The notes under the pieces: generated by a model | Seen by the model: only the letters and a program-made list of their open reading frames with translations | What the model was told of the DNA's origin: nothing | The model's database searches: none | Made by a program: the position numbers and the translations under genes | Origin: Okamejei kenojei | Taxonomy: Eukaryota | Direction of reading: 5' to 3' | Length of the DNA: 64,000 nt | Assembly: GCA_035221665.1 (NCBI GenBank) | Contig: CM069135.1 | Coordinates: 39,742,001-39,806,000, forward strand | Shown here: one piece after another, positions 2,143 through 54,200 of the stretch | Position numbering within the stretch: position 1 is the first letter of the stretch | Layout of the letters: every line of letters starts with the position of its first letter

Positions 2143-3005
2143 CCAATTATGCCTCATGCCTCAATTATTATATTTCCTACCTAAATTATTTTCTTTCTTT
2201 CATCGGTCCCTATTCACTAATACCGATCATAATGACATTTGCCACCTTAACCATTATTCAATTAAAAGCCTTTTTGGATCAGGGAGTTAGAGTTTCTATA
2301 TATACAGCCTTTATTGGAAAAAGTGCGGTCCAGTAGTCCAACCAGTTTTCATCCAACTCACTGACAATCTGGATTTCTCCATTAAACATTTCCTTGAATT
2401 CCATTCACTGCTACAAAATTTAAAGAGATCTTGGTTATCATCCATCTTTTCGAGGCACGTTCATTTTGTCCAGTTCCCTTAAGTCAGAAACCTTAATCCT
2501 ATTATAGAGATAATTATGCTTTCTATCAAGTCACGCTACTGTGAATTATAAAAATAAAACACCCATATTTTGCATTAGCGGTCCGTGTTGACATTTAGGT
2601 CTCTCCGTTCATCGATAGTACAACATTGGCAGTGATGTGTGTGCACATTTATAAAATCTCAACAGTTTTCAGGTGAAACGTAAGACTGTGGCTCTGTCTG
2701 CCATGCATTCAAAGCAGATCAGAACTGTCAACTGACATTCCTTCCTTAACCTTCCCCAGCACAGAATATTATTGCTCAGTCATTTCCTGTGTGTGTAAAA
2801 TTACTGCCATGTTTCCATGAATAACAACTGTAACAGTATGCACTTGAATAACAAGGAAAAACATTATATATAATTTGCAAAATTAATCTCTTTGAAATGT
2901 GCAGGAGTCTCTGTCCATTACTGAATTGCAGAGAGATACATACTAAATCCAGTGTGTTCAATTTTGTATTTTCCTTTTTAACAGCTCAAATACAAAATTA
3001 CATAG

Positions 3006-3209
3006 TGTAGATGGTTTATATATGCAACCAATAACATAGTTACCTCAGTACCATTAACCCCACCTAGTTAACATCAATCATAACACCTTCCCCTTCCTGG
3101 GTACAGTTCAGTAGAAGAATGTAGCCAGTGCTTGAGGATGTATGTGATACCCTGTGCTATCATTAAAAGATGTTGCACACTTTAAGAGTTTGTGAATTGC
3201 TTGTTTACA
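3006..3209 (+). repeat. 5' LTR
   Basis: TG...CA termini, direct repeat of 4913-5116, ATTAAA poly(A)-like signal. Confidence 0.95.
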
Positions 3210-3259
3210 TGGTGTCAGAAGTGGGATGCGAATCCACACCTCCAATTGGAGTCCTGAAC
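3210..3259 (+). other. tRNA-Leu PBS extended into a ~50-nt reverse tRNA copy
   Basis: 18-nt PBS complementary to the tRNA-Leu(CAA) 3' end including CCA. It continues as a T-arm hairpin (GTGGG-ATGCGAA-TCCAC) and a variable-arm palindrome (CTCCAATTGGAG). Confidence 0.8.
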
Positions 3260-4865
3260 AAGCCGATTCACGCTGCCCCTGCCAGGCTGCAGCATATGAT
3301 GCTGCAGCTCCAGCGTTTCGATTTCGACATCATCTACAAGAAGGGCACCGAGATGCACATTGCGGACACCCTATCGTGCGCCCCAGGGACCTCCTGTGCT
3401 CGCCACCCCTACGAAACAGAGGACTTGCTCGTACTGGGCGTTAACTTTATTCCCACCAAGCAGCTACAGGTTTTGGCCGAGCACACCGCTGTCGATCCAG
3501 TTTTGCAGTGGCTCTCCTCTGTGATTAAAGCAGGGTGGCCAACAAAGCGCTCCGCTGCGTCGTCTGAAACACAGCCTTTCTTTTTGGTCCGCGACGAACT
3601 GGTGCTCCAGAATGACGCCATCGTCAAGGGACATAAAGTTGTAGTCCCGTCCTCCCTGTTTGACTTTTACTATTGCGCAGCCCATAGCGGACACCCTGGG
3701 GTCGATGCAACACTCGCCCACGCTCAGTGCCAATTCTACTGGCCTGGAATGGCCAAATATATACGAGACAGAGTTTCTGCCTGCTCCACGTGCAACAGTC
3801 TTGCTCCACACCAGCAGCGACAGCCCCTGCTGCAACAGCCTGCCCCTGCCTTGGCTTGGTCCTCGCTGGCTGCCGACATATTCGAGTGGCGTGGTAACCA
3901 CTACCTTGTCCTGGTCGACTCATACTCAAACTGGTTCGAAGTGGATTTACTGACATCCCTCACAACTCCGAACGCTGCAGAAACACTTCTCCACTTTTGG
4001 GTCCCCTGTCAGGCTGCAGACTGACAACGGCAGGCAGTTTACCAGCCGAGAATTCAAAAGTTTTGCCGACAAGTGGAATTTCGTGCATTTCACCAGCAGC
4101 CCAGAGTACCCACAGAGCAACGGCCTTGCAGAACGGGCCGTCCGCAGCGCCAAGCTTCTGATGGAACAGGCGAGACTGTCCAACTCTGATTTGTATTTGG
4201 ATCTCCTGAACCTCAGGAATGTTTCCAGAGATCCGGCCATGGGGTCACCTGCTCAGCGTCTGATGTCCAGAAGAACAAGATCTACCATCCCGATTACTCA
4301 GCGCCAGCTGCAACCTTGGGTGCTGGAGCCTGCCTCCGTGCAGAGGCGCATTCAAGAGAAACATGACAGCCAGCGGCGTTCCCACGATCGGTCGTGCAGA
4401 CCACTCGATCCTCTGTTGCCTGGACAGGTTGTTCGGTTGCAGACCGCCGGTGGTCACTCCCGTCTGGCTACCGTGGTTGGGGTGGCCGACTCACCTCGTT
4501 CGTATCTGGTCGACTATGAGGGTTCCATCTACCGAAGAAGCCGACAACACCTGCTTGCGGTTAATGAGCCGAAGCCGCAGCCCCCGGGGCCCTATGCCCC
4601 GCCACTCTCATACCAGCAGCCGGCTGCCGTCCCAGCTAGTGTTCCCTGCATGCCTCGGTCCCCATATCGAGTGCCTGGTTCCCCTCTGCGCGGGTCCCCT
4701 GTTGCCGGTCGCGGTTTTAACTCTCCTGTTTTTCCCACCCCACTGCCCTTCCCTGGTTCCCCAGCTGCCTCGTGTTCTCCTGTTTCTTCTGCTCTTTCGG
4801 GGGAAGGGGGAGACATCCGTACGCGGATTAGTAAGCCACCTGTTCGTTATGGCGATTTTGTTTAA
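3251..4865 (+). pseudogene. Gypsy pol remnant: RNase H C-terminus, connector, HHCC zinc finger, DDE integrase (one frameshift near 3970)
   Basis: ORFs 3170-4024 (KPIHAAPARLQ, HIADTLS, HSGHPG...CSTC, AAD) and 4083-4865 (SPEYPQSNGLAER). TDNGRQF lies in the second frame just upstream of 4083. Confidence 0.92.
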
Positions 4866-4912
4866 TTCTGTTGTTGTGACAACAATCTGTTTTGATTTTC
4901 TAAGGGGAAGGA

Positions 4913-5116
4913 TGTAGATGGTTTATATATGCAACCAATAACATAGTTACCTCAGTACCATTAACCCCACCTAGTTAACATCAATCATAACACCTTCCCC
5001 TTCATGGGTACAGTTCAGTAGAAGAATGTAGCCAGTGCTTGAGGATGAATGTGATACCCTGTGCTATCATTAAAAGATGTTGCACACTTTAAGAGTTTGT
5101 GAATTGCTTATTTACA
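4913..5116 (+). repeat. 3' LTR
   Basis: Follows the PPT (4902-4912); about 98.5% identical to the 5' LTR; followed by TSD CATAG. Confidence 0.95.
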
Positions 5117-5311
5117 CATAGCTTCTTCAACAGAGAAATATCTAAGTGTGTACAGACTACTTGTGCAAGTTAGTATGTTTCCTTGTTATAATTCAAAGTG
5201 AACTGAGTGTTTTACATATGTTTTCATAATAAATCACAATACTGCATCTTAAGTCATATTTAGACCGGTCTGCCTCCTCCAAAGTAAGGCTGTGGATTTC
5301 CTTCCTTAATG

Positions 5312-5945
5312 ACATAGAAACATAGAAATTAGGTGCAGGAGCAGGCCATTCAGCCCTTCGAGCCTGCACCACCATTCAATATGATCATGGCTGATCATCC
5401 AATTCAGTATCCTGTACCTGCCTTCTCTCCATACCCCCTGATCCCTTCAGCCACAAGGGCCACATCCAACTCCCTCTTAAATATGGCCAATGAATTGGCC
5501 TCAACTACCTTCTGCGGCAGAGAATTCCACAGATTCACCACTCTCTGTGTGAAAAACGATTTTCTCATCTCAGTCCTAAAAGACTTCCCCCTTATCCTTA
5601 AACTGTGACCCCTTGTCCTGGACTTCCCCAACATCAGGAACAATCTTCCTGCATCTAGCCTGTCCAACCCCTTAAGAATTTTGTAAGTCTCCATGAGATC
5701 ACCCCTCAATCTTCTAAATTCCAGCGAGTACAAGCCGAGTCTATCCAGTCTTTCTTCATATGGAAGTCGAGCCATCCCAGGAATCAGTCTGGTGAACCTT
5801 CTCTGTAATCCCTCTATGGCAAGAATGTCTTTCCTCAGATTAGGAGACCAAAACTGTACACAATACTCCAGGTGTGGCCTCACCAAGACCCTGTACAACT
5901 GCAGTAGAACGTCCCTGCTCTTGTACTCAAATCCTTTTGCTATGA
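5312..5945 (-). mobile_element. CR1 LINE 3' fragment (RT C-terminus and tail)
   Basis: ORF 5404-5955 (LYRVLVRPHLEYCVQFWSP...RTRGH...FFTQRVV); CATAGAAA tail repeats. Confidence 0.95.
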
Positions 5946-6404
5946 AAAAGAACATCAGTTAATGAGATTAACATCAGTTAATTGTTTCTAGAACAATCCA
6001 GCAATTTGAGAGTTCAGCTTTTTAATTAACTAATTGAATTCCACAGTTTATTCAGGTATAATTGGAACTCTTCATTGACTCACGTGACTGGGTTGCTTGT
6101 TAATTACAAACACACCAGTGCACAATTCCCCCTTCTTCAAGCAAGATCCCTTAATTTGTATTTTAGATAAGGTGTGCATAGTTAGGAGATAAGTAGCAAT
6201 TGAAATGTGACTGTTCCTCATTAGGAGCTAGTACACTTGGTTTACTGATGGTATTGGGTATGTGATGCAATGTACAGACCATATTGCAATAAAGCCAGCA
6301 GGAAATGCTTCCTCTTCAGATGTCTCATGTCTGGTCTTGATGTGGTAATGGCAGCCACTGATGGATAATTCACTTTGAAGCTGGCATCTGTCCAGCTGGC
6401 ATCT

Positions 6405-15153: not shown

Positions 15154-15985
15154 TATAACCATATAACCATATAACAATTACAGCACGGAGACAGGCCCTC
15201 TCGGCCCTTCCAGTCCGTGCCGACCATTTGTTTTCCCCTAGTCCCATCTACCTGCACTCAGACCATACCCCTCCATTCCCTTCACGTCCATATACCTATC
15301 CACTTTACTTTTAAATGTTAAAATCGATCCTGCCTCCACCACCTCTGCTGGAAGCTCATTCCACACAGCCACCACCCTCTGAGTAAAGAAGTTCCCCCTC
15401 ACGTTACCCCTAAACTTCTGTCCCTTAATTCTCATGTCATGCCCTCTTGTTTGAATCTTCCCTACCCTCAATGGGAAAAGCTTATCCACGTCAACTCTGT
15501 CTATCCCTTTCATCATTTTAAAGACCTCAATCAAGTCCCCCCTTAACCTTCTGCGCTCCAAAGAATAAAGACCTAACTTGTTCAACCTTTCTCTGTAACA
15601 TAGTTGCTGGAACCCTGGCAACATTCTAGTAAATCTCCTCTGTACTCTCTCTATTTTGTTGACATCCTTCCTATAACTAGGCTACCAAAATTGTACACCA
15701 TACTCCAGAATTGGTCTTACCAATGCCTTGTACAATTTTAACATTACTTCCCTACTATATTCAATGCTCTGATTTATAAAGGCCAGCACACCAAAGGCTT
15801 TCTTTACCACCCTATCTACATGCGATTCCACCTTCAGGGAACTATGCACAGTTATTCCTAGATCCCTCTGTTCCACAGCATTCCTCAATTCCCTACCATT
15901 TACCATGTACGTCCTATTTTGATTTGTCCTGCCAAGATGTAGCACTTCACACTTATCAGCATTAAACTCCATCTGCCATCTTTCA
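15154..15985 (-). mobile_element. Young CR1 3' fragment
   Basis: ORFs 15238-15624 and 15682-15972; TAACCATA tail repeats; TTCAGTATGT repeated at 15138-15147 and 15982-15991; near-identical to the copies at 48.9 kb and 60.4 kb. Confidence 0.95.
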
Positions 15986-17299
15986 GTATGTTTCCTGATG
16001 TAACCCAGCTACAGTAAAACAGAATTTGAGCAAATAATGTACACTGCTATGACAACAGCACCAAAAAGCAGCAAGCAAACAAATTAATCTGATACACAAT
16101 ATTGCCTTTGTACATTTACACTGTGTTAAGATGTTTTGGTCTTAAGATATTGAGTCTTATATTTCTTCTTTGTGTAGTGAATGAGCCCTTTCATGCTTTT
16201 TATTATATTAACCAATTATCAAAGTTGCCTTGGAATGCTTGCATAAAGAGATGTCATGATTTTGCTTGTAAATATTGAAATATTCTTTGCAATGACAATC
16301 AAATAACTACTGAAATAAAAACATTTGATTTATACTTCAGATATTATTATCTCTGAGTTTCACCTCCTAAGTTATGAAGTAGGAACAGCTTCATATGCCA
16401 TAGTTATATCCTGTGATAGTGGAAGTTTGTCAAATTTGGGTCAACAGAAGAGTGGGACATTATTCAATTTAAATTCAGTAATATTAAATAAAGCTTGAAC
16501 TAATTTATAAAGACTTCTGTCAGTTGTTCCTGCCTTCCATTAAAGCTTTAGCTCAACTTGTTACTTGGTGATGCTGGGATATCTTGGGGGTCAGATTAGC
16601 AATGACTGCAGCCTGACTCCCTGCTCAGGTTTCTGCTTGGATGGCCATTCTCGAACTTGATCATGTAAAATTAGCACGTAAACATGATCGGCAACCTGCT
16701 GAATACACAGCGACAGATTTCCTCAGAAACTGCACTGCTGTGCAAGTGATAAGAAGTCAGGACTTTAACTTGGGCTGCAAATCGTACAGCAAAATTACAA
16801 AAAGAAAATGACAGAAGAACACGAAGAAGTTATGTACATTGGGAGTCCAACAGGATCTATATGGTCATGGGTAATTAAAAATATATATATTTAATGGTTG
16901 GCAAAAATATGTTGAGCAGAATTATTTAAGTGAATGGAATAACTACTGCTGGATCTGCGTGTGCATTTGATGCTAACAATGGAATCATAATAATTGCAGA
17001 CTTTGAAATGTCTTGGGGATATCTGAAGCAATACAATCCGCTTTTGTTGGGAATTAAGTTGTTTATAATTTTTTTCTCTATTTAATGTTTTATTGAGCTG
17101 GTTTAGATATTTAAAAGTTTGTTTCTGGATATTGTGATGTACCTCTTAGTTGGTCCACTTTGCGTGTTACTTCACGTTCAAGAATTTCTGAACTTCCCTC
17201 ATCCATTTTTGTGTCCATGACAAGTCCAACCATACACCAGTGGAAAGGGAGCCCAAAAGTAAACACCTAAGATGGTTGAGATTCCAATATTCTAGTTTC

Positions 17300-18992: not shown

Positions 18993-20785
18993 GTAGACAA
19001 AAATGCTGGAGAAACTCAGCGGGTGAGGCAGCATCTATGGAGCAAAGGAAATGGGCAATGTTTCGGGTCGCGACCCCTCTTCAGAATAATGGGTGGGGGT
19101 TGGAAGAAGAAAGGTAGAGGTGGAGACAGTGGGCTGAGAGAGAGCTGAGAAGGGGAGGAGATAGTAAGGACTGCCTGAAATTAGAGGTCAATGTTCATAC
19201 TGCTGGGGTGCAAACTGCCCAAGTGAAATATGAGGTGCTGCTCCTCCAATTTACGGTGGTCCTCACTCTGGCCATGGAGGAGGCCCAGGACAGAAAGGTC
19301 GGATTCAGAATGGGAGGGGAAGTTGAAGTGCTAAGCCACCAGGAGATCAGGTTAGTTATTGCGAACCGAGTGGAGGTGTTGGGCGAAACGATCGGCAAGC
19401 CTACGCTTAGTCTCACCAATGTACAGCAGCTGACTTCTAGAGCAGCGGATGCAATAGATGAGGCTGGAGGAGGTGCCGGTGAACCTCTGCCGCACTTGGA
19501 AGGACTGCTTGGGTCCTTGAATGGAGTCAAGGAGGGAGGTAAAGTGACAAGTGTAGCATTTCTTGCAGTTGCAAGGGAAAGTGCCAGGTGAGGGAGTAAT
19601 ATGGGTGGGAAGGGAAAAATTGACTAGGGAGTTATGGAGGGATGGGTCTCTGTGGAAAGCAGACAGCAGAGGAGATGGGAAGATGTGGCAAGTGGTGGGA
19701 TCACATTGGAGGTGGCGAAAATGACGGAGGATTATTTGTTGTTCGTGATGGGTGGAAGGTGAGGACAAGGGGATTCTGCCCTTGTTACGAGTGGGGGGGG
19801 GGGGGGTGGGGAGAGAGCAGAGTCACTGGGTATAGAAGAGACCCTGGTGAGAGCCTCATCTATGGTAGAAGAGGGGAACCCCCATTCCCTGAAGAATGAG
19901 GACATCTCCGATGTCCTGGTGTGGAACACTTCATCCTGGGTGCAGATGCGGCGTAGACGGAGGAATTGGGAGTAGGGGATGGAGTCCTTACAGGAAGTAG
20001 GGTGGGAACAAGTGATGTCCAGATAGCCATGGGAGTCAGTGGGTTTATAGTAGATGTCGGTCAGTACTCTATCACCTGGGATGGAGATAGTGAGGTCAAG
20101 AAATGGTAGGGAAATGGTCCAAGTCTATTTGAGTGCCGGATGGAAGTTAGTGGCGAAATGGATGAAGTCAGTGAGTTGTGTGTGGGTGCAGGAGGTAGCA
20201 CCAATGGAGTCGTCGATGTAGCGGAGGTAGAGTTTGGGGATAGGGCCACGGTACAACTCGAACAAGGATTGTTTGACGTACCCTACAAAGAGGCAGGCAT
20301 AGCTAGGGCCCATGTGCGTGCCCATAGCTATACTTTGCATTTGGAGGAAATGGGAGGAGTCAAACGAAAAGCTAAGGGTAAGGACCAGCTCCACTACGCG
20401 GAGGAGAGTATCAGTAGACTGGGATTGGTTAGTTCTCTGTTCGAGGAAGAAACGGAGGGCTTTGAGATCCTCCTGGTGGGGGATGGAGGTGTAGAGTGAC
20501 TGGACATCCATGGCGAAGATGAAGGAATGGGGGCCTAAAAATCTGGAAGTCCTGGAGTCGACGAAGAGCGTGCAAGGTATCTTGAACATAGGTGGGGAGG
20601 GATTAAACCATGGGGGATTGGATGGAGTCGAGGTATGTGGAAATAAGTTCAGTGAGACACAGACAGGCAGAAACAATGGGTCTGCCAGGACAGTCAGGTT
20701 TTTGGGTTTGGGGGAGAAGGTAAAATCGGGCCGTGCGTGGCTGGGGAACGATGAGGTTGGAGGCTCGGGAGGGCAGAGAGGCGGT
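18993..20785 (-). mobile_element. Penelope-like element, 5'-truncated (RT, GIY-YIG and 3' terminal repeat)
   Basis: FYLLP..KPDCPGRPIVS, MDVQSLYTSIP, AMGTHMGPSYA, YLRYIDD, IYCIRC...YIGETKRRLADRFAQH. Confidence 0.95.
19056..19084 (-). ncRNA. Minimal type-I hammerhead ribozyme motif in PLE terminus
   Basis: Minus strand reads CTGAAGA-G-GGGTCGCGACCC-GAAAC-ATT: intact core boxes, stem II hairpin and vestigial stem III, as described for PLE hammerheads. Confidence 0.7.
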
Positions 20786-21099
20786 GTTGATTAATTGGGC
20801 TAGCTCTATTCGGTTTTCATAAATTATGACACAAGTTCTGACATCTGACACAAACAAAATTAATTTTAAAAGATTAAGACATTGGATAGTGAGCTCTTTG
20901 AGAGTGGAGAGCAGTCATCTTGCTGACAAAAGGTAATTTAACAAAATCGTGCAACAAGGTTTTTTTTGCTGGTTTAATGTGTACCCATTTGAGAAGGCTG
21001 GACATAGAGAGAAGCAAGTGTCCAAATGGCTGGGTAACAGGCAGAGCAACGAATGAAAGGAAGGCAAGGTATAACAGAGTGGCCTGTTCACACTGGCTG

Positions 21100-21672: not shown

Positions 21673-22164
21673 ATTAATGTTTTATTGTGGACAATTTCTC
21701 CTGAAATGTTAATTTTTGCTTTATTAGCTTTAAAAAATATATAATTGCACAGCAAACTGTTTTGATAAACGTCAGTGAGACCAAAGATGGGTTTGTTCAA
21801 AGTAGCGAGCAGGTCAGGCAGAGTCTGTGGAGACAGAGTCGTCGTTTCAGTTTCTAAATATTTTGCAAGAATCCTACTCAATTAGTTAATCACAGTTTTG
21901 CACTACACAGCAGTTGGATAATTCCTGCTCTTTTAGCTGAGTTTCAGTGATCCTTGCATCTTTAAGTTAAGCTGACATAAAGGGCATGCATTATGATTGT
22001 CACTGTGGTTATGTTTTCAGATATTTTGAGAACAGTGTCACCTTTGAACAAACAGTTTAAACTCAAAGCTCAATGATGATATAAACTCTTTTTAAATAGT
22101 GATCTCATAGATGTTATTCCAATGTTCATTTGATGAAGATCGATGCTTGAACTGCAATTTCTAG

Positions 22165-25100
22165 CACGAGGTAGTGCTTCCCGTGCCAGTCAAAGATATC
22201 AGCAGCCACTGATGACCATGGTAGAGAGGGAGCTGGCTGAGACAGCAGGGGTTGTTTTTGCTGGTGTGGTGCCTGCCTGTTACAGATCGCGCATGATTCT
22301 GTTTTCTCCCAAATATACTTGGTCATTCCGGGCCAGTAGATCATTTCTTTTGCACGTTGTAGGGTAACCTCCATGCCCGGGTGACCACCATGGATTTCCT
22401 TATAGTACTCGTTTCGCAGGGATGAGGGGAAGACCGTCTTGTGACCCTTGACAATCACTCCATCCTGTAGTACTAGTTCGTCACGTACCAGGAAGTAGGG
22501 TCGTAATTCAAAAGGGTTTTAGGCTGTTTGTTTGGCCACCCGCCTTTGATGATGGAAGTTAGCAGTTGGGAGGTTTTATCTGCAGCTGTGTGTTCGGCAA
22601 GGCGGCGCAAGTGGTTGGTGGGAACAAACGAGACTTTCAGGACGGAGAATTTGTCCTGTTCGAATGGGTGTTCGCTGGTGGTGCGTGGCGCTCTAGATTG
22701 AGTGTCTGCGATGTGCATGTCTTTCCCTTTTTGTAGACAATGTGAAAATCAAATCATTATAGCTACGTCATCATGCGTTGAAGTCTGGCTGGGGCAGCAT
22801 GGATCGGTTTGCTAAGGATAGTGACTAGTGGTTGAAGGTCAGTCTCTACCGTGAAGGTCTTGCCAAAAATAAAGTCTTTAAATTTCGAACAGGCGAAAAC
22901 CACGGCAAGCAGTTTCTTCTCTATCTGTGCGTAGCGTTGTTCAATATCAGTTAAGGTGCGCGATGCGTAGGATACAGGCATCACGTCGCTGTTGGAGGTT
23001 TGCAGGCATGCTGCGCCTAGTCCATACTGGGATGCATCGCAGGTGATTGTGACTGGCAGATTGATGTTGAAGTATGCCAGGGTTGGTGCACTAGCGAGCT
23101 GTAACTTTAAAGTCTTGTAAGCTTATTGATGCTGTGGGTACCAGGACCAGGTGTTGTCCTTGTGGGTTAATTGTCACAGTGGGGCTGCCAATTCTCTGAG
23201 ATTGGGGATGAATTTGCCCAAGTAGTTGACCATACCTAAAAATCGTTGTAAGCTGGTGACGTTGGTTGGTACTGGCAGCTCGTTAATCACTGCAGTCTTC
23301 AGCGGGTCAGGCTTTAACCAGTTGCTGGTGAACACGTAACCAACGTAAGTGACTTCTGGAACTCTGAACTTGCACTTCAGTGGGTTCAGTTTTAAATTAA
23401 TATCTCTGGCACGGTTCAACACCTGCCGTAGCTTGGCAACATGCTCGGTTGCGTCTCGGCCGTAAACTAGGATGTCGTCAACAATGATGGCACAAGGGTA
23501 TTCTGTGAACAGCTGTTCCATTGCGCGCTGGAAGACTTCACTAGCAGAGTTGGTACTGAAAGGCATTCTGAGAAATCGGTAGCGGCCGAACGGAGTAGCG
23601 AAAGTTATTAGCGCAGATGATGCACGGTCTAAAAGAGCTTTTGGCATCTAGGACTGAGAATACAGTTGCAATACCGATCCGTGCCGCTACGTCCTCAGTG
23701 GTTCTCATCGGGTAGTGTTCGCGTTTAATTGCTGTGTTCAAATCTTTAGGATTGATGCAGATGCGTAATTCCTTTTTGTCTTTCTTGGTGGTGATGACCA
23801 TGGTGGAGACCCAGTCTGACGGTTCGCTGCCTTCGGCAATAACTCCGATGGAGACCATACATTTGTGTTCATCGTGTATTTCCTCTCGCATGCCGTGAGG
23901 GACGTGGTGAGGTGCACGTACAATTAGGGTGACCGAATGGTCAATAGTGATCTTATATATTGTCGGTAACTTGCAGAGTTTGTCATCAAACAAGTCCTTA
24001 TAGTTGGATAATATTTGTTGTATTTGTTCCTCTGTTAGACAGAGTTTGTGGACAGCACTCCCGAAATAAACCAGACCCAAGTCATGGCATGCGTTGATGC
24101 CAAGCAAGGTTTCAGAACTTGGATGGGCAATGTAAAAAAGAGTAAGGTCTTTGTTGATGGTACATTTCAGATCAGCTTACCCAGTGGGTGTAGAATTGCT
24201 CCTCCATAAGCATGTAGAGTGGAGGAGTCTTTTTTTTCATGTGCTCAGTGGTTCTTATCTTGTTGAACACTTTGAGTGACATGACGTTTACTCTGGCGCC
24301 GGTATTGACTTTGGCGATCCGAGGTTTGTTAACGATTGTCATGGTCACCGCAGGATCAGTCATTTTGCCTGGAGTGCGCAGGTTTAGGGAAAGTACAGTA
24401 GACTCGGTGTCTGTGTTATCTGAGTCATTCCCGTGGGAAGATTCTTCCTGTTCATGGGAATCGGACGGGTCTTGTTGAATCCGGTGCACCTTTGTCCTTG
24501 AAGCTGTACTCCCTCTAGACTGACAACAATTAGCAAAGTGGTTGTGTTTCTTGCAATTATGACATACATTCCCATGGGCTACGCAAAATTAGCACCCCCT
24601 GGGTTGGAAATAGTTACAGTTAGAGCAGGCACATTTTGATCTTTGCAGGACGCATTGAGAAATCTTTGTGGAGAATAGCTAGCCTGATTCACATTAAGTT
24701 GTTGATGAGAGTTAACGCTATCAAAGTCAGCAAGTGGTGCTACAATCTCAGCCATCCGACAAGCATGAATCGTTTGCTCCAAAGTCAGTTCAGCGTTCTG
24801 CAACAGTTCGGCTCTTAACTTGCGGTCGCTTATTCCTCCCACAATTTTATCACGTACTAGCTCATTTGTCAACTCACCAAATCTGCATTGAGAGCTGATG
24901 TGTGTCACTGTTGCACTTGGGGGGGGGAAAAAATCTCGTCCTCTCGAGGATCCTCTCTAAACTTCCTCAGCAGAACCGTCGTCAATAATTTCAGCCGGCA
25001 CCACTACCAGACCATTCCCGTCTAGTTGAGCTAGTGCAAATCCAAAAGAGTCAGTGCGGATCATAGCTTCCGGACCCGCTAAATTCAACTGCAGCGATGC

Positions 25101-25400
25101 TTTCGAATCGTCGGGATTGTTTTGGTGAACAATGCGGATATAATGAGAATAGTCCTTCTCAAATATTTGCCATTGCTTGGCAATATCGGAGTCCAACACG
25201 AGCAGGCTAGGCTTTTGACAAGAGTTAGCCATGTCATCAAAATCGCTCACAAATAAAAACTGGAAAACAAAATAAATTGCGGTAAACATACGCGGGATAG
25301 ACCCGATTCACTGACACCATGTAAAGAGCTCAAACTCACACAGGTTGAAACGCAAGCATTTTTATTGTTCAGGTCATGATCTTGTAAGCAGGTCATTACA
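22165..25400 (-). mobile_element. Gypsy LTR retrotransposon, degenerate, 3'-truncated within integrase
   Basis: Short LTR-like segment 25320-25400, PBS TGGTGTCAG, gag (LVRDKIVGGISD), PR (KVNTGA), RT (LDAKS, IVDDILV), RNase H (CDAS, YAQIEK), IN HHCC. No 3' LTR. Confidence 0.92.
25320..25400 (-). repeat. Putative short (81-bp) 5' LTR
   Basis: Minus strand TGTAA...AATAAA...TTTACA immediately followed by the PBS. The outer boundary cannot be verified without a second LTR. Confidence 0.6.
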
Positions 25401-26047
25401 CGTTCACACTGCTATGGCTACTGCCAGGCAGTGGGCAAGTCCTTAAACTATGAATGTTATAATTAGGTGGAGTTATAATTATTAAGCATTCTAATTGGCT
25501 AATTGTTTTTGTTGTAATGTAGGCTAACTTGACAGTCAATTTGAGCAGAACAAAAATCTGTTCCCTCCAGTTTTCATGTCGTGGTTCCACAGGACACTGG
25601 CATGGATGAGATAATTCAATGTGTTTCACTACAATGTAAGCAACAAGCTCATTATCTAAATTATTCAAATTAAAACCTGTACATAATGTATTCAAATTTT
25701 CTTTTAGACCATGCGTCATGTGCGCTAATAACTTTCGCTACTCCGTTCTTTGAGATGTAAATCTCAAAGGCAACGCTTTTAGATGGTACTTGATTTATTG
25801 GTCAAACAACACCACTGAATGGCAATCCTCTTGCTCTTTCCAATTAAACACTAAACTATTGGCTACCAGCTGCCTTTTCTGATCTCTATGTTAGTTGATA
25901 TTGCAGTTAAACCCCTCCTACATGTACCATGCCTGTCAATTTCAATCTACTGTCATCACTTCTTGTCCTTGGAAACCTAGGCTCCATCCCTGCAGACCAT
26001 TGTCCCCTCTGCAATCTCACTTTCCTCTCGTCCATGAATGCAAGAGA

Positions 26048-28132: not shown

Positions 28133-29040
28133 GTCTAAAGAAACGTTCTAACACGAAATGTCACTTATTTCTTTCCTCCAGAGAGGCTGCCTGACTGCTG
28201 GGTTACTCCAGCATTTTGTGTCTGTCTTCTCTGCTCACAACTTGGATAATGACTCCACTCCAGGGTCTCCTTTATATCCCATAGCTCCGCTCACTCCCCA
28301 TCTCCCCCCCCCCCCCCACACTCGTAACAAGGACCGAGTCCCCCTTGTCCTCGCCTTCCACCCTGCCAGCTGTCACATACAACAGATAATCCTCCGACAT
28401 TTTTGCCACCTCCAACGGGATCCCACCACTGGCCACATCTTCCCACCCCCTCCCCTGGTAGTTTCCCTTGCAACCGCAGGAAATGCTACACTTGTCGCTT
28501 TACCTCCCCCTTGACTCCAGACCCAAGCAGTTTTCCAGGTGAGGCAGAGGTTCACCTGCACCTCCTCCAACCTCATCTATTGATCCACTGTTCTAGGTGT
28601 CAACAGTTCTACATCGGTGAGACCAAGCGCAGGCTTGGCAATCGTTTCGCCCAACACCTCCGCTCAGTCCGCACCAACTAACCTGATCTCCCGGTGGCTC
28701 AGCACTTCAACTCCCCCTCCCATTCCAAATCTGACCTTTCTGTCCTGGGCTTCCTCCATGGCCAGAGTGAGTCCCACCGCAAATTGGAGGAGCAGCACCT
28801 CATATTACGCTTGGGTATTTAACGCCCCAGTGGTATGAACATTGACTTGTCTAATTTCAGGTAGTCCTTGCTTTCTCCCTCCTTCCCCTCCCCAGCTCTC
28901 CCACAGCCTGCTGTCTCCGCCCCTTCCTTCTTCCCACCCCCACATCTGTCTGAAGAAGGGTCTCGACCCAAAATGTCACCTATTCCTTCTCTCCATAGAT
29001 GCTGCTTCACCCACTGAGTTTCTTCAGCACTTTTGTCTAA
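28133..29040 (+). mobile_element. PLE remnant (GIY-YIG part) bracketed by two hammerhead-bearing terminal repeats
   Basis: Terminal repeats at 28133-28225 and 28948-29040; YIGETKRRLGNRFAQH in ORF 28403-28681. Confidence 0.9.
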
Positions 29041-36740: not shown

Positions 36741-36891
36741 GTTAGACATAAAATCCTCAGCGGGTGAGGCAGCCTCTATGGAGAGAAGGAATGGGTGACG
36801 TTTCGAGTGGGAGAACTGGGAAGGCGAAGAAGAGAGAAAGCAAGGGCTATCTGAAGTTCGAGAAGTCAATGTTGATACCGCTGGGGTGTAA

Positions 36892-39800
36892 TCATAGAAA
36901 ATAGGTGCAGGAGTAGGCCATTCGGCCCTTCAAGCCTGCACTGCCATTCAATATGATCATGGCTGATCATCCAACACAGTATCCTGTACCTGCCTTCTCT
37001 CCATACCCCCTGATCCCTTTAGGCCACAAGGGCCACATCTAACTCCCTCTTAAATATAGCCGATGAACTGGCCTCTACTATCTTCTGTGGCAGAGAATTC
37101 CACAGACTCACCACTCTCTGTGTGAAAAATGATCTTCTCATCTCGGTCCCAAAAGACTTCCCCCTTATCCTTAAACTGTGACCCCTTGTCCTGGACTTCC
37201 CCAACATTGGGAACAATCTTCCTGCATCTAGCCTGTCCAACCCCTTAAGAATTTTGTAAGTTTCTATAAGATCCCCTCTCAATCTCCTAAATTCAGAGAG
37301 TATAAACCGAGTCTATCCAGTCTTTCTTCATAAGACAGTCCTGACATCCCAGGAATCAGTCTGGTGAACCTTCTCTGCACTCCCTCTATGGCAATAATGT
37401 CCTTCCTCAGATTTGGAGACCAAAACTGTACGCAATACTCCAGGTGTGGCCTCACCAAAACCCTGTACAACTGCAGTAGAACCTCCCTGCTCTTGTACTC
37501 AAATCCTTTTGCTATGAATGCCAACATACCATTCGCTTTCTTCACAGCCTGCTGCACCTGCATGCCTACTTTCAATGACTGGTGTACCATGACACCCAGG
37601 TCTCGTTGCATCTCCCCTTTTCCTAATCGGCCACCATTCATATAATAATCTACCCTCCTGTGGATAACCTCACATTTATCCACATTATACTACATCTGCC
37701 ATGCATTTGCCCACTCACCCAACCTATCCAAGTCACCTTGCAGCCTCCTAGCATCCTCCTCACAGCTAACGCTGTCCCCCAGCTTCGTGTCATCCGCAAA
37801 CTTGGAGATGTTGCATTCAATTCCCTCATCCAGATCATTAATATATATTGTAAATAGCTGGGGTCCCAGCACTGAGCCCTGCGGTACCCCACTAGTCACA
37901 GCCTGCCATTCTGAAAAGGACCCGTTTACTCCTACTCTTTGCTTCCTGTCTGCTAGCCAGTTCTCTATCCACATCAATACCGAACCCCCAATACCGTGTG
38001 ATTTAAGTTTGTATGCTAATCTCTTATGTGGGACCTTGTCGAAAGCCTTCTGTAAGTCCAGATATAACACATCCACAGGTTCTCCTTTATCCACTCTACT
38101 AGTTACATCCTCGAAAAATTTTAAAGGATTCGTCAGACATGATTTAACTTTCATAAATCCATGCTGACTTTGTCAAATGATTTTACTGCTATCCCATCTT
38201 TAATAACTGACTAGCATTTTCCCCACTACCGATGTTAGACTAACTGGTCTGTAATTCCCCGTTTTCTCTCTCCCTCCCTTTTTTAAAAGTGGGGTTACAT
38301 TAGCTACCCTCCAATCCTCAGGAACTACTCCAGAATCTAAAGAGTTTTGAGAAATTATCACTAATGCATCCACTATTTCTGGGGCTACTTCTTTAAGTAC
38401 TCTGGGATGCAGCCTATCTGGCCCTGGGGATTTATCGGCCTTTAATCCATTCAATTTACCTAACATCACTTCCTGGCTAACCTGGATTTCACTCAGTTCC
38501 TCCATCTCATTTGACCCCCGGTCCCCTGCTATTTCCGGCAGATTATTTATGTCTTCCTTAGTGAAGACAGAACCAAAGTAGTTATTCAATTGGTCTGCCA
38601 TGTCCTTGTTCCCCATGATCAATTCACCAGTTTCTGACTGCAAGGGAACTACGTTTGTTTTAACTAACCTTTTTCTCTTCACATATCTATAAAAACTTTT
38701 GCAGTACGTTTTTATGTTCCCTGTTTTCTTTCATAATCTATTTTCCCTTTCCTAATTAAGCCCTTTGTCCTCCTCTGTTGGACTCTGAATTTCTCCCAGT
38801 CCTCTGGTAGGCTGCTTTCTCTGGCTAATTTGTATGCTTCATCATTTGCTTTGATACTATCCCTGATTTCCCTTGTTATCCATGGCTGCACTACCTTCCC
38901 TGATTTATTCTTTTGCCATACTGGGATGAACAATTGTTGTAGTTCATCCATGCAGTCTTTAAATGCCTTCCATTGCATATCCACCGTCAACCCTTTAAGA
39001 ATCACTTTCCAGTCTATCTTGGCCAATTCACGTCTCATACCCTCAAAGTTACCTTTCTTTAAGTTCAGAACCCTTGTTTCTGAATTAACAATGTCACTCT
39101 CCATCCTAATGAAGAACTCAACCATATTATGGTCACTCTTGCCCAAGGGGCCATGCACAACAAGACTGCTAACTAACCCTTCCTCATTACTCAGTACCCA
39201 GTCTAGAATAGCCTGCTCTCTCGTTGGTTCCTCTACATGTTGGTTTAGAAAACTATCCCGTATACATTCCAAGAAATCCTCTTCCTCAGCACCCCTGCCA
39301 ATTTGATTCACCCAATCTATATGTAGATTGAAGTCACCCATTATAACTGTTTTACCTTTGTTGCACGCATTTCTAATTTCATGTTTGATGCCATCCCCAA
39401 CTCCACTACTACTGTTAGGTGGCCCTTTACACAACTCATACTAGCGTTTTCTGCCCTTTAGTGTTTCGCAGCTCTACCCATATCGATTCCACATCCTCCA
39501 AGCTAATGTCCTTCCTTTCTATTGCGTTAATCTCCTCTCTAACCAGCAACACTACTCCACCTCCTTTTCCTTTCTGTCCATCCCTCCTGAATATTGAATA
39601 TCCCTGGATATTCAGCTCCCAGCCTTGGTCACCCTGGAGCCATGTCTCCGTGATCCCAAGTATATCATATTCATTAATAACTATCTGCACATTCAACTCG
39701 TCCACCTTATTACGAATGCTCCTTGCATTAAGACACAAAGACTTCAGGCTTGTTTTTTACAATACTCTTACCCCTTATACAATTACGTTGAAAAGTGGCC

Positions 39801-41111
39801 CTTTTTGATTTTTGCCCTGGATTTTTTTTGCCTGCCACTTTTACTTTTCACCTTGCTACCTATTGCTTCTACCCTCATTTTACATCCCTCTGTCTCTCTG
39901 CTCATGCTCCATCTCCCTGCCACATTAGTTTAAATCCTCCCTGACAGCACTAGCAAACACTCCCCCAAGGACATTGGTTCCCTTCAAGCCCAGGTGCAGA
40001 CCGTCCTGTTTGTACTGGTCCCACCTCCCCCTTGCACCATTTTTCAAGCCACATGCTCATCTGCCATATCCTCCTATTTCTACTCTGACTAGCACGTGGC
40101 ACTGGTAGGAGTCCAGAGATTATTACCTTTGAGGTCCTACTTTTAAGTTTATCTCCTAGCTCCCTAAATTCGCCTTGTAGGACCTCATCCTGTTTTTTAC
40201 CTATATCGTTGGTGCCAATGTGCACCACGACAGCTGGCTGTTCACCCTCCCCCTCCAGAATGTTCTGCAGCCGTTCAGTGACATCCCTGACCCTTGCACC
40301 AGGGAGGCAACATACCATCCTGGAGTCTCGTTTGCGGCCGCAGAAACGCCTATGTGTTCCCCTTACTATTGAATCCCCTATTACAATAGCCCTTCCACTC
40401 TTTTTTCTCCCCTCCTGTGCCGCAGAGCCACCAATGGTGCCATGAACTTGGCTGCTGCTGCCTTCCCCTGATGAGCCATCTCCCCCAACAGTATCCAAAA
40501 TGGTATATCTGTTTAGGAGGGAGATGACCGCAGGAGACTCCTGCACCACCTGCCTACTGCTACGCTGGCTAATGGCCACCCGTTCCCTTTCTGTCCACTT
40601 AACTTGTGGTGTGACCAACTCGCTGTATGTGCTATTCACGAGCTTCTCAGCATCGTGGATGCTCCAGTATGAATCCAACCGCAGCTCCAATCATTCAATG
40701 CGGTCTGCCAGGAGCTTCAGCTGGACACACTTCCTGCAAACGTAATCACCAGGGACACCAACCATATCCCTGATCTCCCACATGTTGAAGGATGAGCAAA
40801 CCATGGGGCCGATCTCAAATGACATGGTTTGCCCCCAAATTAAATCAACTCACACTATAAAAATCTTAATCCTTTAAACTAACCTTTACTGAAAAGCACT
40901 GAGCCCTTAGCGCAAACCAGGGGTTGCACCCAATCAGCTGCTTCCACCAATCAGTGGCTTCCACCTGAACACTTGTGTGGAATGTTACAGGTTTGGGTCC
41001 TCCTCTTGCTCCAATGGCTCCTGGGCCTCTGTTAAAACAAAGCCCCACGCTTGATTTTTAAACTCACCGCCTGGAGACTCCTCCTCTTGCTCCAACGGCT
41101 CCTGGGCCTCT
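36892..41111 (-). mobile_element. Full-length CR1 LINE (5'UTR repeats, ORF1, ORF2, tail) with several frameshifts
   Basis: ORF1 39950-~40800 (Cys motifs, GDSIVR, HIGTND); ORF2 ~37019-39740 (CLNARS, ITETWL, GDFN, SDH, QGSVLGP, FADD); CATAGAAA tail. Confidence 0.95.
39950..40800 (-). pseudogene. CR1 ORF1p (zinc finger, coiled coil, SGNH esterase)
   Basis: AIVIGDSIVRG...CLPGAR...VVVHIGTNDIG...ISGLLPVP. Confidence 0.9.
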
Positions 41112-42385
41112 AATAAACTACCCAAGCGAAATATGAGGTGCTGTTCCTCCAATTTGCACTGGACCTCACTCTGACAATGGAGGAGACACAAGACAGAAAG
41201 GTCAGATTGGGATTGGGAGGGGGACTTGAAGTGCTGGGCTACCAGGAGATCAGATGGGTTAAGACGGACTGAGCAGAGGTGTTCAGTGAAACGATCACCG
41301 AGCCTGCACTCACCAATATAGAGAAGTTGACACCTGGAACAGCGGATGCACTAGTTGAGGTTGGAGGAGGTACAAATGAGTCTCTGCTTCACCTGGAAAG
41401 ACTGTTTAGACCTTTGGATGGAGTCGAGGGGGGAGGTAAAGAGACAGGTGGTTTGGATGGGAAGGGACTAGTTGACCAGGGTGTTATGGAGGGAACAGCC
41501 TCAGCGGAAAGCAGAAAGGGGTGGAGATGGGAAGATGTGGCCAGTAATGAAATCCCGTAGGAGGTGGTGGAAATGTTGGAGGTTTATATGCTGTATGCAA
41601 CGGCTGATGGGGTGGAAAGTGAGGACAAGAGGGACTGTGTCCTTATTACGAATGGGGGGGATGGGGAGTAAGAGCGGTGCTGCGGGATATCGAGGAGAAC
41701 CCAGTGAGAGCCTCAGCTATAATGGAAGAAGGGAACCCCACCCAGTTCCCTAAAGAATGAGGACATCTCTGATGCCCTGGTATGGAACACCTCATCCTTG
41801 GCGCAGATGCGGTGTAGACGGAGGAATTGGGAGTAAGGGATAGAGTATTTACAGGAAGCAGGGTGGGAAGACGTGTTGTCAAAATAGCTATGGGAGTCAG
41901 TTGGTTTGTAGTAAATGTCAGTCAATAGTCTGTTGCCTGTGATGGAGACGGTGAGATCTAGAAACGGTAGGGAGATGTCAGAGATTGTCCAAGCGAATTT
42001 GAGCGCAGGATGGAAATTTGTGGTGATGTTGATGAAGACAGTGAGTTCTGCTTGTGTGCAGGAGGTAGCACCAATGCAATTGTCAATGTAGTGGAGGTAG
42101 AGTTCGGGGACGGGGAGTGTTCGATGTACCCTACAAAGAGACGGGCATAGCTGGGGCCCATGCCAGTGCCCATCGGGGCTCGTGATTAAGGGGCTATCAC
42201 TTAAACTGATGTGCATTGACTCTTCTTGTAGAGGTTGATGAATCACTAGGATTCTCTACCCCAGAAGCTACACTGGAGGTACTTTAAGAGGAAGATGGAT
42301 GTTTTGTTTGAAAAATCACAGAACTGTGAGCCATGGAAAATTGACAAGGAAAGTGGAGATGAGGCCTGGGGTGTAACAACCACAA

Positions 42386-44155
42386 TGTGGTGCCACCCGG
42401 TGGTTAGACCACCTGTCTTCGAACCCTTGGTAGTCGGGGGTGGGGTCAAGTGACTGGGTGAAGGCGGGAAGCAGTTGTCACAAGGTTTAGTGATGTGCCC
42501 TAGTAAAAGTATGGAGACCAGGGTCAACCCTCCCCCATTCGCATGTGTGTTGATCTCTTTACCTGAGCAATAAAGTTCTCTTTTGTTTTTGCCACGCGTG
42601 GCTCGTTTATTCGCCCACCATATTGGTGACCCCGACGATCCATTTTGCATTTCATACATGTTCACAGCCAACGACCAACCTCAACAGCCCGATGTTGCCG
42701 ACATGGCAGCCCTGCGGGTGCTACTGTCCTGCGTGTCTCCACTGGTCAACTGCGGCCTATTGTTCTGGCTGCCTGGCGCCGGCGGGTGTTTGCCGTCCTC
42801 CACGGGTTGACGCACTCTTCCATCCGGTCCATGATTGCGCTGGTGGCGGCCCATTTCATGTGGCATGGTTTGCGCAAGCAGGTTGGTAACTGGGCCCGGG
42901 CGTGTGTCCAGCAGTCCAAGGTCCAGCGGCACGTCCGGGCACCTGTTCAGGTGTTTGCCGTGTCACATCAATGGTTTGATCACGTGGATATCGTGGGTCC
43001 GCTGCCTCTGTCCCGGGTCGTCACGCATCTCCTCACGTTGGTGGATCGTTTTACGCGGTGGCCAGAAGCTGTTCCGCTGACCGATACCTCTGCTGCGTCC
43101 TGTGCCTGTGCCCTTGCTGCCCATTGGATTGCTCGTTTCCGTGTGCCTGTGGACATTTCCTCGGACCGGGAGCCTCGGTTCACTTCTGAGTTATGGTCGG
43201 CTATGGCTCGCCTGTTGGGGGTTCAGTTCCACCATACTACGGGCCTACCATCCCCAGTCGAATGGTTTGGTGGAGCGCTTTCACCGGCATTTGATGACCG
43301 CCCTCCAGGCACCACTTACCGGGCCAGAGTGGATGGACGTTACCTTGGGTGTTGCTGGGAATCTGCACTGCCCCAAGGAGGATTTGGCTTCCTCATCGAC
43401 GGAGTTGGTGTTTGGTGCTCCGCTTGCGGCTCCGGGGGATTTTGTTCCGGGTTGCAGGAACCGCCTTCCTCGGTGTTGGTTTGCGGCAGAAGGTGGGCAT
43501 GCTTGCTCTGGTTCCGACGTCTCGCCTTCGCACAGTCCAGCTGCTCCTCAGGATTGTGCTTTTGTGTTCCTGCGCTGTGACGCGCATCGCACGCTGCTGC
43601 AGCAGCCTTGCAAGGGGCTCTTCCATGTGCTGCAGAGGGGTCTTCCGACTTTTGTTTCAGACATGAGGTGACTGACATGAGACTGTGTCGGTGGCTGGGT
43701 TGAAGCCTGCTCATGTCGACCTGATTCAAGCTGTATTGGGGCCCTGCCTCGTCGTCGGGGGCGTCCGAGGTCCTGCCCGCTCCCGCCTTCACCTACCTCG
43801 GGGGAGTCCCCTGTGTGGGGGGGGGGGGGAGGAGGAATGTGTGTTCGAGGTCCGGCCGCCTCGTTCGTCAACCCTTTTGGTTTCGTGCTTCGGGTTCTGG
43901 GGGGGGTGGGGGGAGATCCTGCGGCGCCACCCGGTGGTTAGGCCACTTTTATTTGAACCCTTGGCAGTCGGGGGTAGGGTAACGTGACTGGGTAATGGTG
44001 GGAAGCAGTTGTCACGAGGTTCAGGGGTGTGCCCTAGTATAAGTATGGAGGCCTGGGTCAGCCCTTCCCCCATTCGCTTGTCTGCTAATCTCTTTACCGG
44101 AGCATAAAGTTCTCTTTGTTTTCACCACGCGTGGCTCATTTATTCGCCCACCATA
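42386..44155 (+). mobile_element. Integrase-only Gypsy LTR element (CsRN1-like lineage)
   Basis: LTRs 42386-42622 and 43920-44155 (about 85-90% identical by eye); 4-bp TSD ACAA; PBS TGGTGACCCCGACG (tRNA-Trp); G-rich PPT; HVDIVGPLP, DRFTRWPEA, SDR, YHPQSNGLVERFHR. Inserted into an old CR1 tail. Confidence 0.92.
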
Positions 44156-47689: not shown

Positions 47690-48870
47690 GATAGTTATAC
47701 AGCATGGAAACAGACCCTTTGGCCCCAAATTGTCCATGCTACCCAAGGTGCTCAATCTAAGCTAGCCTATTTGCCTGTGTTTGGCCCATATATATTCCTC
47801 TAAAACATTCCAATCCATCTACCTGTCCAAACGTTTATTAAATGTTAGTATTGAACCTGCCTCGATTACTTTGTCTGGCAGCTCTTTTCAGATAATCCCC
47901 ATCGATGGTGTGAAAAAGTTGCCTCTTAGCTTCCTACCAAATCTTTCCCGTCTCGCCCTATACCTATGTCCTCTTCGTCTTGATTCCCATATTCTAGGAA
48001 AAAGATCCATTCCCCATGTGATTGTATATACCTCTATAAGGTCAGCACTCTGCCTCCATGCTCCAAGGAGTAAAGTCCAAGCCTGCTCATCTCTCCCTAA
48101 AGGTCAGGTCCTCGAGTCCTGGCTCAATATTGTTGTAAATTTTCTCTGCATTTTTTTTTCAACTGGCAGCTTTCCTATAGCAAACTGTGACCCAAACTGT
48201 AACATAATGTCCGTATACCCAGCTCCTTGACTGATGAAGGCCAGCGTGCCAAAATTCGTCTTCACCACCCTATCTACATTTTGCGCCGCTTTCAGGGAAC
48301 AATATATTTGTACTCTAAGATCTCTCTGCTCTATAACACTCCCAAGGGCCCTACCATTCACTGTTTGGGTCCTGTGAATACAACACCTCACACGTAATTG
48401 AATTAAGCTTAGTTTGCGATTCTTCGGACCTCTTGCTCAACTGATTAAGATCCCACTGTAATTCTTCATAAAGTTATTCACTGTTTGATGCCACCTATTT
48501 TTGTGTCATCTGCAAGTGTACTAATCATGCCTGGTGCCTTCTCGTCAAAATTGTTGATATAGATGACAAACAATATTGGTCCCAGTGCCAATCCCTGAGG
48601 CGCACCACTAGTCACAGGGTTCCTCTGTAATAAGCAATCTTTCACCACCACAATCTGCTTCCTACCATGAAGCCCATTCAGTATCCAGTTAGCTCGCTCT
48701 CCCTGGATCCCATGCAATCTACCTTTTCGGAGCAGATTATGTGGAACCTTATCAAAGGCCTTGCTGGTCTATTTAGACCCATCTAAGTGACCCATCTCAT
48801 CAACTTTCTTTGTTATTTCTTTTATAAAGCTGAATGAAATTTGTGGGACACTATCTCCCACACACTAAAC
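47690..48870 (-). mobile_element. Older CR1 RT fragment
   Basis: [24 protein letters not shown] motifs; continues for a few bases after 50943. Confidence 0.85.
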
Positions 48871-53112: not shown

Positions 53113-53344
53113 GATTGGGGAGAGGGTGGGAGGGGGTAGATGAGGAGGGGTGGGAGGGGGGGTGTTTTTTTTCTGAGAGGGCCTGGAGACCCCACCCCGA
53201 GGAATCGGTGGGTAAACCTCATATGGACAAGAAGACAGCACAAGATGGCTGGGCGATGGAAGACGACGCTGAACGCCGAGAAAAGATATATTAATATTTG
53301 TGGGGCGCCGCAAAAGCGAACTGGTGGGGGAACCTCACCCACAG

Positions 53345-54200
53345 GCCCCCCCCCTCACATTCCCCCCTCTCCTCCCCCCTCGTACCTCCCGTCAAGTCCT
53401 CTCACCTCGACCTCCCCTCCACCCCTCATTTCCCCCCCCCCCCCCTCCCCCCCCCCCTCATTTCCCCCCCCTCATTTTCCCCCCCCCTCATTTCCCCCCC
53501 CACTATTTCCCCCCCCATCATCCCCCTCATTTCCCCCCCCCTCGTTTCACCCCCCCCCTCGCACCCCCCCCCCCTTTTCATTTCATTCCCCCCCCTCATT
53601 CCCCCCCCTATGTCCCCCCCCCCATCCCCTCGTTTCCCATTCCCCCCCCTCCATTTCCCCCTCAATTCCCCTCCCCCCCCTCAGTTCCCCCCCCCTCATT
53701 TCCCCCCTCATTTCATTCCCCCGTTTCCCCCCCCCCCCCCCTCATCCCCCCCCATTTCCCCCCCCTCATTCCCCCCCCCTCATTCCCCCTCCATTTCCCA
53801 CCCCCCTCCCCCCCCCATCCCCTCATTCCCCCCCCCCCTCATTCCCCCCATTTCCCCCCCCCCCCATCCCCCCCCATTCCCCTCCCCTCATCCTCCTCCC
53901 CTCATCCCCCCGTCCCCCTCATCTCCTCCCCCCCCGTTCCATCCCCTCCCCCTATCCCCCCCTCATCCCCCCCCCATCCTCCCCCCCATCCTCCCCTATC
54001 TCATCCCCCCCCATTCCTCTCCCCCCTCATCCTCCCCCCCCATCCCTCTCCCCCCTCTTTCTCCCCCCCCATCCTCCCCCCCCCATCCTCCCCCCCCCCC
54101 CATCCCCCCACTTCCTCCCCTCCCCTCACTTCCCCCATCCTCCTCCCCTCACTTCCCCCCCCATCCTCGTCCCTCTATTTCCCCCATCCTCCTCCCCTCA
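53345..54200. repeat. C-rich minisatellite, irregular (C4-10)TCAT(T) units
   Basis: About 850 bp of CCCCCCCTCATTT-like repeats with extreme C/G strand skew. Confidence 0.95.

Follow-up and report, generated by a model that had tools for sequence, protein, structure and literature searches.

After analyzing a window of 64,000 nucleotides (the whole stretch of Okamejei kenojei DNA studied here), we propose, with moderate confidence, that the retrotransposon at 3006-5116 is a decayed copy of a passively copied, non-autonomous Ty3/Gypsy (Mag-like) family, which was born by delayed plus-strand transfer and carries its integrase frame as a passenger. To judge from the junction that it preserves, plus-strand synthesis in a full-length parent under reverse transcription would have overrun position 58 of the primer tRNA-Leu, and 24 or more extra primer bases would have been copied. 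Transfer of the strand to a short, similar stretch of the minus strand, close to the RNase H end, would then have cost the element gag, protease, RT and the greater part of RNase H, with both LTRs, the primer-binding site (PBS) and the polypurine tract (PPT) retained. The shortened element would have been copied many times by the proteins of a full-length sibling. Its integrase frame and ATG would have been carried passively, the ATG arising from CA+TGG and falling in frame by chance about one time in three. For this family, we infer a high copy number of the deleted form, mobilization in trans and no selection on the ORF.

The features of the element are listed in Table 1. The two LTRs show 3 differences in 204 nt (1 transition and 2 transversions), corresponding to a K2P divergence of 0.015 (Poisson 95% range 0.003-0.043); the intact target site duplication (TSD), PBS and PPT and the LTR difference of 3 in 204 given in a preliminary description were all found as claimed. 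Two overlapping coding frames, 3209-4021 (Integrase_H2C2, E 1e-12) and 3954-4862 (rve, at 31.6 bits slightly below the Pfam cut-off of 32.6), are free of stops and together contain the HHCC and the D, D, E motifs. The element lacks gag, protease, RT and most of RNase H, amounting to ~840 codons in P0143, a full-length homologue of 1354 aa to which the alignment starts near residue 840, at the last ~22 RNase H positions. Pfam and the homologue alignment thus agree with the earlier statement that the coding content is the RNase H end plus integrase alone, and the suggestion that the element is non-autonomous and borrows Gag and RT is supported by the missing gag, protease and RT.

Table 1. Coordinates of the features of the retrotransposon in the window
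Feature	Position	Strand	Remark
Whole retrotransposon	3006-5116	+	2111 nt, including 1.6 kb pol
Left TSD, CATAG	3001-3005	+	Single copy at the empty site in runs X6 and X9
5' LTR	3006-3209	+	204 nt, TG...CA; TATA-like word at 3017, ATTAAA at 3162
In-frame ATG within LTR, A at -3	3170-3172	+	Opens into the integrase frame
Junction ATG (last LTR base and first two PBS bases)	3209-3211	+	T at -3, G at +4
tRNA-Leu PBS	3210-3227	+	ARAGORN calls tRNA-Leu for 90 of 130 motif-matching rows (among the matches listed)
24 nt more of antisense tRNA-Leu (T arm, variable arm)	3228-3251	+	Differs from the tRNA gene at 3228, 3233 and 3238
Deletion junction	3252-3260	+	pol resumes at 3252; 3253-3259 fits the continuing tRNA at 6 of 7 positions (microhomology)
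RNase H tail, last ~22 codons	3252-3320	+	Alignment to homologues
Integrase zinc-binding HHCC motif	3683-3793	+	Pfam Integrase_H2C2, alignment
Integrase core, D, D, E motifs split across two frames	3869-4142	+	Pfam rve, alignment
Frameshifting break in the catalytic core	3963-3967	+	Not common to the bulk of copies (read depth, loose ends)
Second small gap, near the C-terminus	4820-4830	+	Not common to the bulk of copies (loose ends)
Stop codon of the integrase frame	4863-4865	+	ORF listing
PPT, 11 purines	4902-4912	+	Directly before the 3' LTR
3' LTR	4913-5116	+	204 nt, TG...CA
Right TSD, CATAG	5117-5121	+	Sequence

The deletion junction and extended primer-binding sites

A motif search of metagenome contigs returned 130 rows, some of them overlapping, which represent at least 118 stretches at 117 loci and most of which ARAGORN assigned to tRNA-Leu (Table 1). 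Among the matches listed, the best row (L089) is identical to 3213-3251 at 36 of 39 positions, including 13 of the 14 positions that are free of the search motif (P ~2e-5 over 130 rows). L089 is an intron-bearing gene labeled Met by ARAGORN, and the near-identical L111 and L112 are labeled Leu(CAA); from these sequences, we infer a primer of the Leu-CAA type. As judged from this alignment, the 18-nt PBS is followed by 24 nt of antisense tRNA-Leu copy, which make up the deletion junction. The tRNA match stops precisely at the restart of pol (3251/3252), and its first mismatch, at 3228, faces tRNA position 58. This position is T in all 118 gene-like rows (L012 being counted as gene-like because ARAGORN calls a gene there) and is not T in 2 of the 12 TGG-starting PBS-like rows, among the matches listed. 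Methylation at this site (m1A58) is described as the normal stop for the copying of primer tRNA (PMC8599865). The element therefore displays the hallmarks of a delayed second-strand transfer: the primer tRNA is copied beyond position 58, continuously with the PBS, and the tRNA insert marks the deletion junction. Rfam, at E up to 10, gave four sub-threshold matches on 3150-3330, none of them a tRNA, and ARAGORN found no tRNA gene across the 64-kb window.

The same kind of junction has been reported for HIV-1, where a delay in second-strand transfer leads to copying of the primer tRNA: in 44 defective proviruses, 5 of them altered at position 58, inserts of 7-54 nt define the deletion junction (PMC12657518). 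The element at 3006-5116 resembles these proviruses in that the copied primer tRNA lies right after the PBS, the insert is itself the deletion junction and the LTRs are intact, and the occasional change at tRNA position 58 is likewise shared. Unlike the HIV-1 cases, all of which that source classes as defective, it lies in a fish germ line, is a Gypsy element and has probably been amplified (PMC12657518).

Extended PBSs also occur at other loci. Among the matches listed, 12 TGG-starting metagenome rows carry CCA-ended tRNA complement for 12-32 nt beyond the PBS. L015 and L115 pass through the anticodon without an intron, where 34 gene rows carry 27-45 nt (among the matches listed), and this spliced anticodon points to mature tRNA as the template. 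Three loci (L035, L096 and L105) reach mid-pol within ~50-150 nt (E down to 1e-18); the other nine gave no forward pol match in 31-2528 nt of sequence downstream. The 12 loci, several of which belong to one family, yielded no LTR pair, and their LTR context accordingly rests on the CA+TGG junction. The PBS-like sites of L015, L115, L035, L096, L105 and L097 extend 19-32 nt into tRNA-Leu, and L097 has tRNA-like sequence directly upstream as well. The extended-PBS motif had no match in viral_contigs; two viral matches to the junction motif were dismissed as chance, only the 19 searched bases being in common.

Abundance, insertion history and the integrase frame

All contigs of 4 of the 24 listed sequencing runs, namely X1 (organism A), X6 (organism B), X9 (organism C) and X15, the sole RNA-labeled run aligned and probably DNA, were aligned to 2400-5315. 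In the three DNA runs, the summed depth over the element is ~4e4 to 6e5 compared with 14-100 in the flanks. Depth sums are no copy number, and as a floor we took the summed depth per contig, which is at least 329 times the flank in X1, at least 679 times in X6 and at least 71-142 times in X9. The family of the element is abundant in three species. Loose ends before 3252 read into upstream RNase H in one contig each of X1, X9 and X15, which indicates that a sibling with more pol exists and places the junction at 3251/3252. Protein searches (27, 118 and 50 matches, one covering 476-2000 aa) and a representative search returned no near-identical family member; in these searches, the first frame is matched at best at 72% over 58% of its length. 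Among named homologues, the closest come from two skates, Amblyraja radiata and Leucoraja erinacea, and point to a skate as the host.

The breaks of this copy behave differently from its junction. The depth falls from 49,660 (X1), 120,489 (X6) and 9,150 (X9) at 3963 to 28.5 in X1 and 0 in X6 and X9 at 3966. Among the 24 of 582 loose-end rows listed, 7 contigs in X1 and 23 in X6 end at 3967, and 5 in X1 and 29 and 17 in X6 end at ~4825. At 3252, X1 and X9 have 1 contig each and the six X6 rows listed have none, and no loose end lies behind the PBS in any run (24 of 582 rows). Piled-up loose ends at 3967 and 4825, in contrast with 3252, make an indirect case for a multi-copy deleted form, and we consider it likely that this form is multi-copy and not a one-off. 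The depth in the junction bin (3184-3281) dips in all four runs (76,931 in X1; 114,281 in X6), and it could derive from the LTR and RNase H parts alone. In X1, two contigs of single-copy depth exit the PBS at 3227 and 3232 and re-enter at a more internal point after an intervening tRNA-like sequence; one of the two is inverted, their matched sides are short, and they may be separate read-through accidents. PBS-to-internal joints are weak evidence, since all have sides under 30 nt.

X6 and X9 each contain one contig that joins 2999 to 5116 and skips the element together with one TSD; in X1, both filled junctions were seen and no empty site was found among the rows listed. The empty sites at the orthologous positions of organisms B and C identify 3006-5116 as a true insertion, and sorting of an ancestral polymorphism may be the source of the empty and filled sites. 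The flanks differ from the window by 2.4% in organism B and 3.6% in organism C, which makes the LTR divergence comparable in magnitude to the species split. The element had been described as young, and this holds in a relative sense only, the insertion being missing from species at 2.4% and 3.6% flank difference. At the rate of the epaulette shark, 7e-10 per generation (PMC10587355), an LTR divergence of 0.015 corresponds to ~10 million generations (2-31 million), the rate being that of another species.

The junction ATG had been noted as being in frame through the tRNA segment, and the frame is indeed open for 271 codons. However, an LTR ending in CA and a PBS starting with TGG create an ATG automatically, and an in-frame start is therefore no sign of design. 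Of the 12 TGG rows, 11 have the ATG (among the matches listed); in the two TGG rows that lead into pol, its frame differs from that of pol and ends after 12 and 28 codons (in frame in 0 of 2), and the element at 22162-25330 also has a junction ATG, which opens 27 codons out of frame with its gag. Two of the retrieved Gypsy proteins start MVSE-like, and none of the 336 retrieved proteins starts with the junction peptide. The upstream ATG at 3170 has a better -3 base (a purine) than the ATG at 3209.

The break at ~3963-3967 shifts the frame and, compared with homologues, drops several codons from the stretch that links the first catalytic Asp to the second. The frameshift placed at ~3970 by the preliminary description is thus real but is a deletion that removes several codons, and it is not the only one, given the second gap at ~4825. 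Judged by its broken core, the copy at 3006-5116 is unable to make integrase. As the breaks at 3963-3967 and ~4825 are not common to the bulk of copies, the frame of the family probably runs uninterrupted from the LTR to 4865, and no further frequent indel was found within the frame among the rows listed (three rows lie beyond the list). For differences between this copy and the runs, 40 of 211 rows were listed, of which 19 fall within the frame, with the deleted or full-length origin of the copies unassigned. Fifteen of these 19 are near-fixed in all runs and hence private to the 3006-5116 copy; 5 are synonymous and 10 are not (40 of 211 rows listed), the neutral synonymous share being 0.25-0.32. 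By this measure, the copy decays neutrally, and the earlier proposal that the element supplies its own integrase is not supported for it, as its core is broken and its private changes are neutral. Among the differences that vary between species, three of four are synonymous (P 0.08; 19 of 211 rows usable), which is a hint of selection on the family ORF. A comparison at conserved columns, where the window is off at 37 of 173, was set aside because the 21 homologues are mostly one cluster and the closest is itself off at 24. An open frame without selection is expected if amplification took place soon after birth from an intact parent.

Competing explanations for the origin

The preferred reading requires that the deleted form was amplified, and it is possible instead that this form is a rare dead-on-arrival product, present in one or a few copies, and that the high depth is produced by full-length siblings with the LTR and integrase in common. 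The dip of the junction bin in all four runs is consistent with this, as are the contigs that run upstream into RNase H in X1, X9 and X15 and the several PBS-to-internal joints of single-copy depth, which suggest, weakly on account of sides under 30 nt, that such deletions recur. However, X6 is without the insertion, and a full-length majority there should yield many loose ends at 3252, whereas none was seen among the rows listed, and no loose end lies behind the PBS in any run among those rows; we therefore regard a dead-on-arrival product as rather unlikely. The passively copied family would also have a different beginning if the leader of the parent already had a long PBS, which may have been so and which speaks against the preferred reading. 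In that case, the parent would have carried a long tRNA-complementary leader, and the deletion would be an ordinary template switch or a DNA-level recombination at the 3253-3259 microhomology. The 6 of 7 matching positions there agree with such an event, and 9 of the 12 extended-PBS loci gave no forward pol match downstream, which indicates that a PBS can be extended without a jump into pol. Nonetheless, the tRNA match stops exactly at the pol restart, the mismatch faces tRNA position 58, and the extensions of 12-32 nt vary between loci as accidents would, which together render a long-leader parent quite improbable.

A more active role for the family can also be envisaged, in which it acts as a semi-autonomous integrase donor, the mirror of Gag-only elements, whose RNase H tail-integrase is translated from the ATG at 3170 or 3209 and given to shared machinery. 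The HHCC and DDE motifs are present in two stop-free frames, both breaks are missing from the bulk of copies with no other frequent in-frame indel among the rows listed, three of the four species-level differences are synonymous, and the RNase H-integrase linker, the protease cut region, is retained. Moreover, free overexpressed Ty1 integrase has been described as active outside particles; the same source, however, has Ty1 integrase normally meeting cDNA in particles, after release from Gag-Pol (PMC2939329). An open frame would be expected anyway if amplification came early from an intact parent, the in-frame start is a one-in-three event that occurs in 0 of 2 cases at other loci, 0 of 336 retrieved proteins start with the junction peptide, and the sole RNA-labeled run, X15, is probably DNA. 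We accordingly find an integrase donor improbable. The same low probability attaches to the broader proposal that one tRNA read-through accident both deleted gag-RT and set integrase in frame with the LTR start, founding a high-copy family that supplies integrase in trans across several skate species.

Relatives, neighboring elements and implications

The element carries the hallmarks of Ty3/Gypsy, with a TG...CA LTR pair and TSD, a tRNA PBS and PPT, and RNase H before a Gypsy-like integrase, and the sole PDB match of its first frame is Ty3 Gag-Pol (7q5b, E 9e-6). The gag, protease, RT and whole RNase H of an autonomous Ty3/Gypsy element were not found in it. The Mag lineage is described as having a PBS for tRNA-Leu or tRNA-Ser, mostly a 5-bp TSD and a short LTR, and the element is similar to it in its tRNA-Leu PBS, 5-bp TSD and LTR of ~200 nt (PMC3286476). 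Mag is, however, defined by an RT tree (PMC3286476), and the element is without RT, so that "Mag-like" refers to these hallmarks alone. A Ginger-type DNA transposon was ruled out, because the element is bounded by direct LTRs and has a PBS and a PPT. A TRIM, which is less than 1 kb and non-coding (PMC10886601), was rejected given 2111 nt with 1.6 kb of pol. Helenus TRIMs are similarly non-autonomous LTR elements that bear tRNA-derived sequence, yet they have a tRNA-like promoter within the LTR and are less than 1 kb, whereas the tRNA copy at 3006-5116 lies beyond the LTR, in antisense orientation, as a direct continuation of the PBS (PMC10886601); Helenus was excluded because the tRNA match at 3210-3251 lies outside the LTR.

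Other families with partial coding content offer closer comparisons. In sugar beet, 7 of 15 pol-bearing non-autonomous families are described as being without Gag, and the size class of 1.5-4 kb has no name there (PMC13570524). These pol-remnant elements likewise retain LTRs, PBS, PPT and a partial pol (PMC13570524). In contrast, the sugar beet families are from a plant and their domains are partly decayed, whereas the skate family is from an animal and its bulk seemingly has an open integrase frame; the account of the sugar beet elements that we consulted mentions no tRNA-copied junction (PMC13570524). In the literature covered, the semi-autonomous elements described so far retain Gag and not integrase (PMC9744471). 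TR-GAG and the wheat elements RLG_Sabrina_SA and RLG_WHAM are similar in being high-copy, retaining one coding part and borrowing the rest; they carry Gag (with or without protease) and are without RT and integrase, whereas the element at 3006-5116 carries integrase only, and its contribution is putative (PMC9744471, PMC13570524). The intact ORF of TR-GAG-like elements is broken in this copy at 3963-3967. In the literature covered, with most subscription journals and Repbase outside it, we found no multi-copy retrotransposon family founded by tRNA read-through and no integrase-only family; the family may already be catalogued.

The window contains further mobile elements. A second Gypsy element on the minus strand (22162-25330) has gag-like, RT and H2C2 regions in several broken frames and is truncated inside integrase. 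The preliminary description had placed a related family with gag-RT at 22165-25400; a gag-like/RT element is indeed there, but its kinship amounts to only 64% over 664 nt. It was ruled out as a helper, since it shows no LTR likeness past the last few bases, a PBS alike at 10 of 18 positions and the same 64% over 664 nt. A 49-nt piece of the RT region of this second element (23588-23636) recurs inverted at 25700-25748 (94%), ~370 nt past its LTR/PBS junction. A decayed integrase (H2C2, rve) at 42630-43671 on the plus strand belongs to a third, distant Gypsy family. Penelope-like fragments lie at 19352-20790 (minus strand, with GIY-YIG and RT matches), 28152-28514 and 40985-42255. LINE copies, which we take to be CR1-type, are found at 5318-6016, 15165-15986, 36890-40690, 48868-49685 and 56533-58749; those at 15165-15986 and 48868-49685 are 99-100% identical and are thus recent copies. 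An ORF at 39953-40690 matches the GDSL esterase family. Two 204-nt inverted repeats (990-1193 and 1911-2114; 78% complementary, 717 nt apart) are possibly an old MITE-like element, and a long C-rich low-complexity array with ~14-nt units occupies 53330-54120.

To our knowledge, non-autonomous LTR elements are common and their birth is seldom visible. The junction of the element at 3006-5116 would record such a birth event. For annotators, MVSE-type starts at LTR/PBS junctions are to be seen as arising automatically. If the family integrase is selected and expressed, integrase would be shareable outside Gag-Pol. If the high copy number belongs to the deleted form, a successful family of a vertebrate germ line would owe its origin to an error that is known from defective HIV proviruses, and a PBS longer than 18 nt would then be a simple search key for such births in animal genomes; three metagenome loci jump into pol in the same way.
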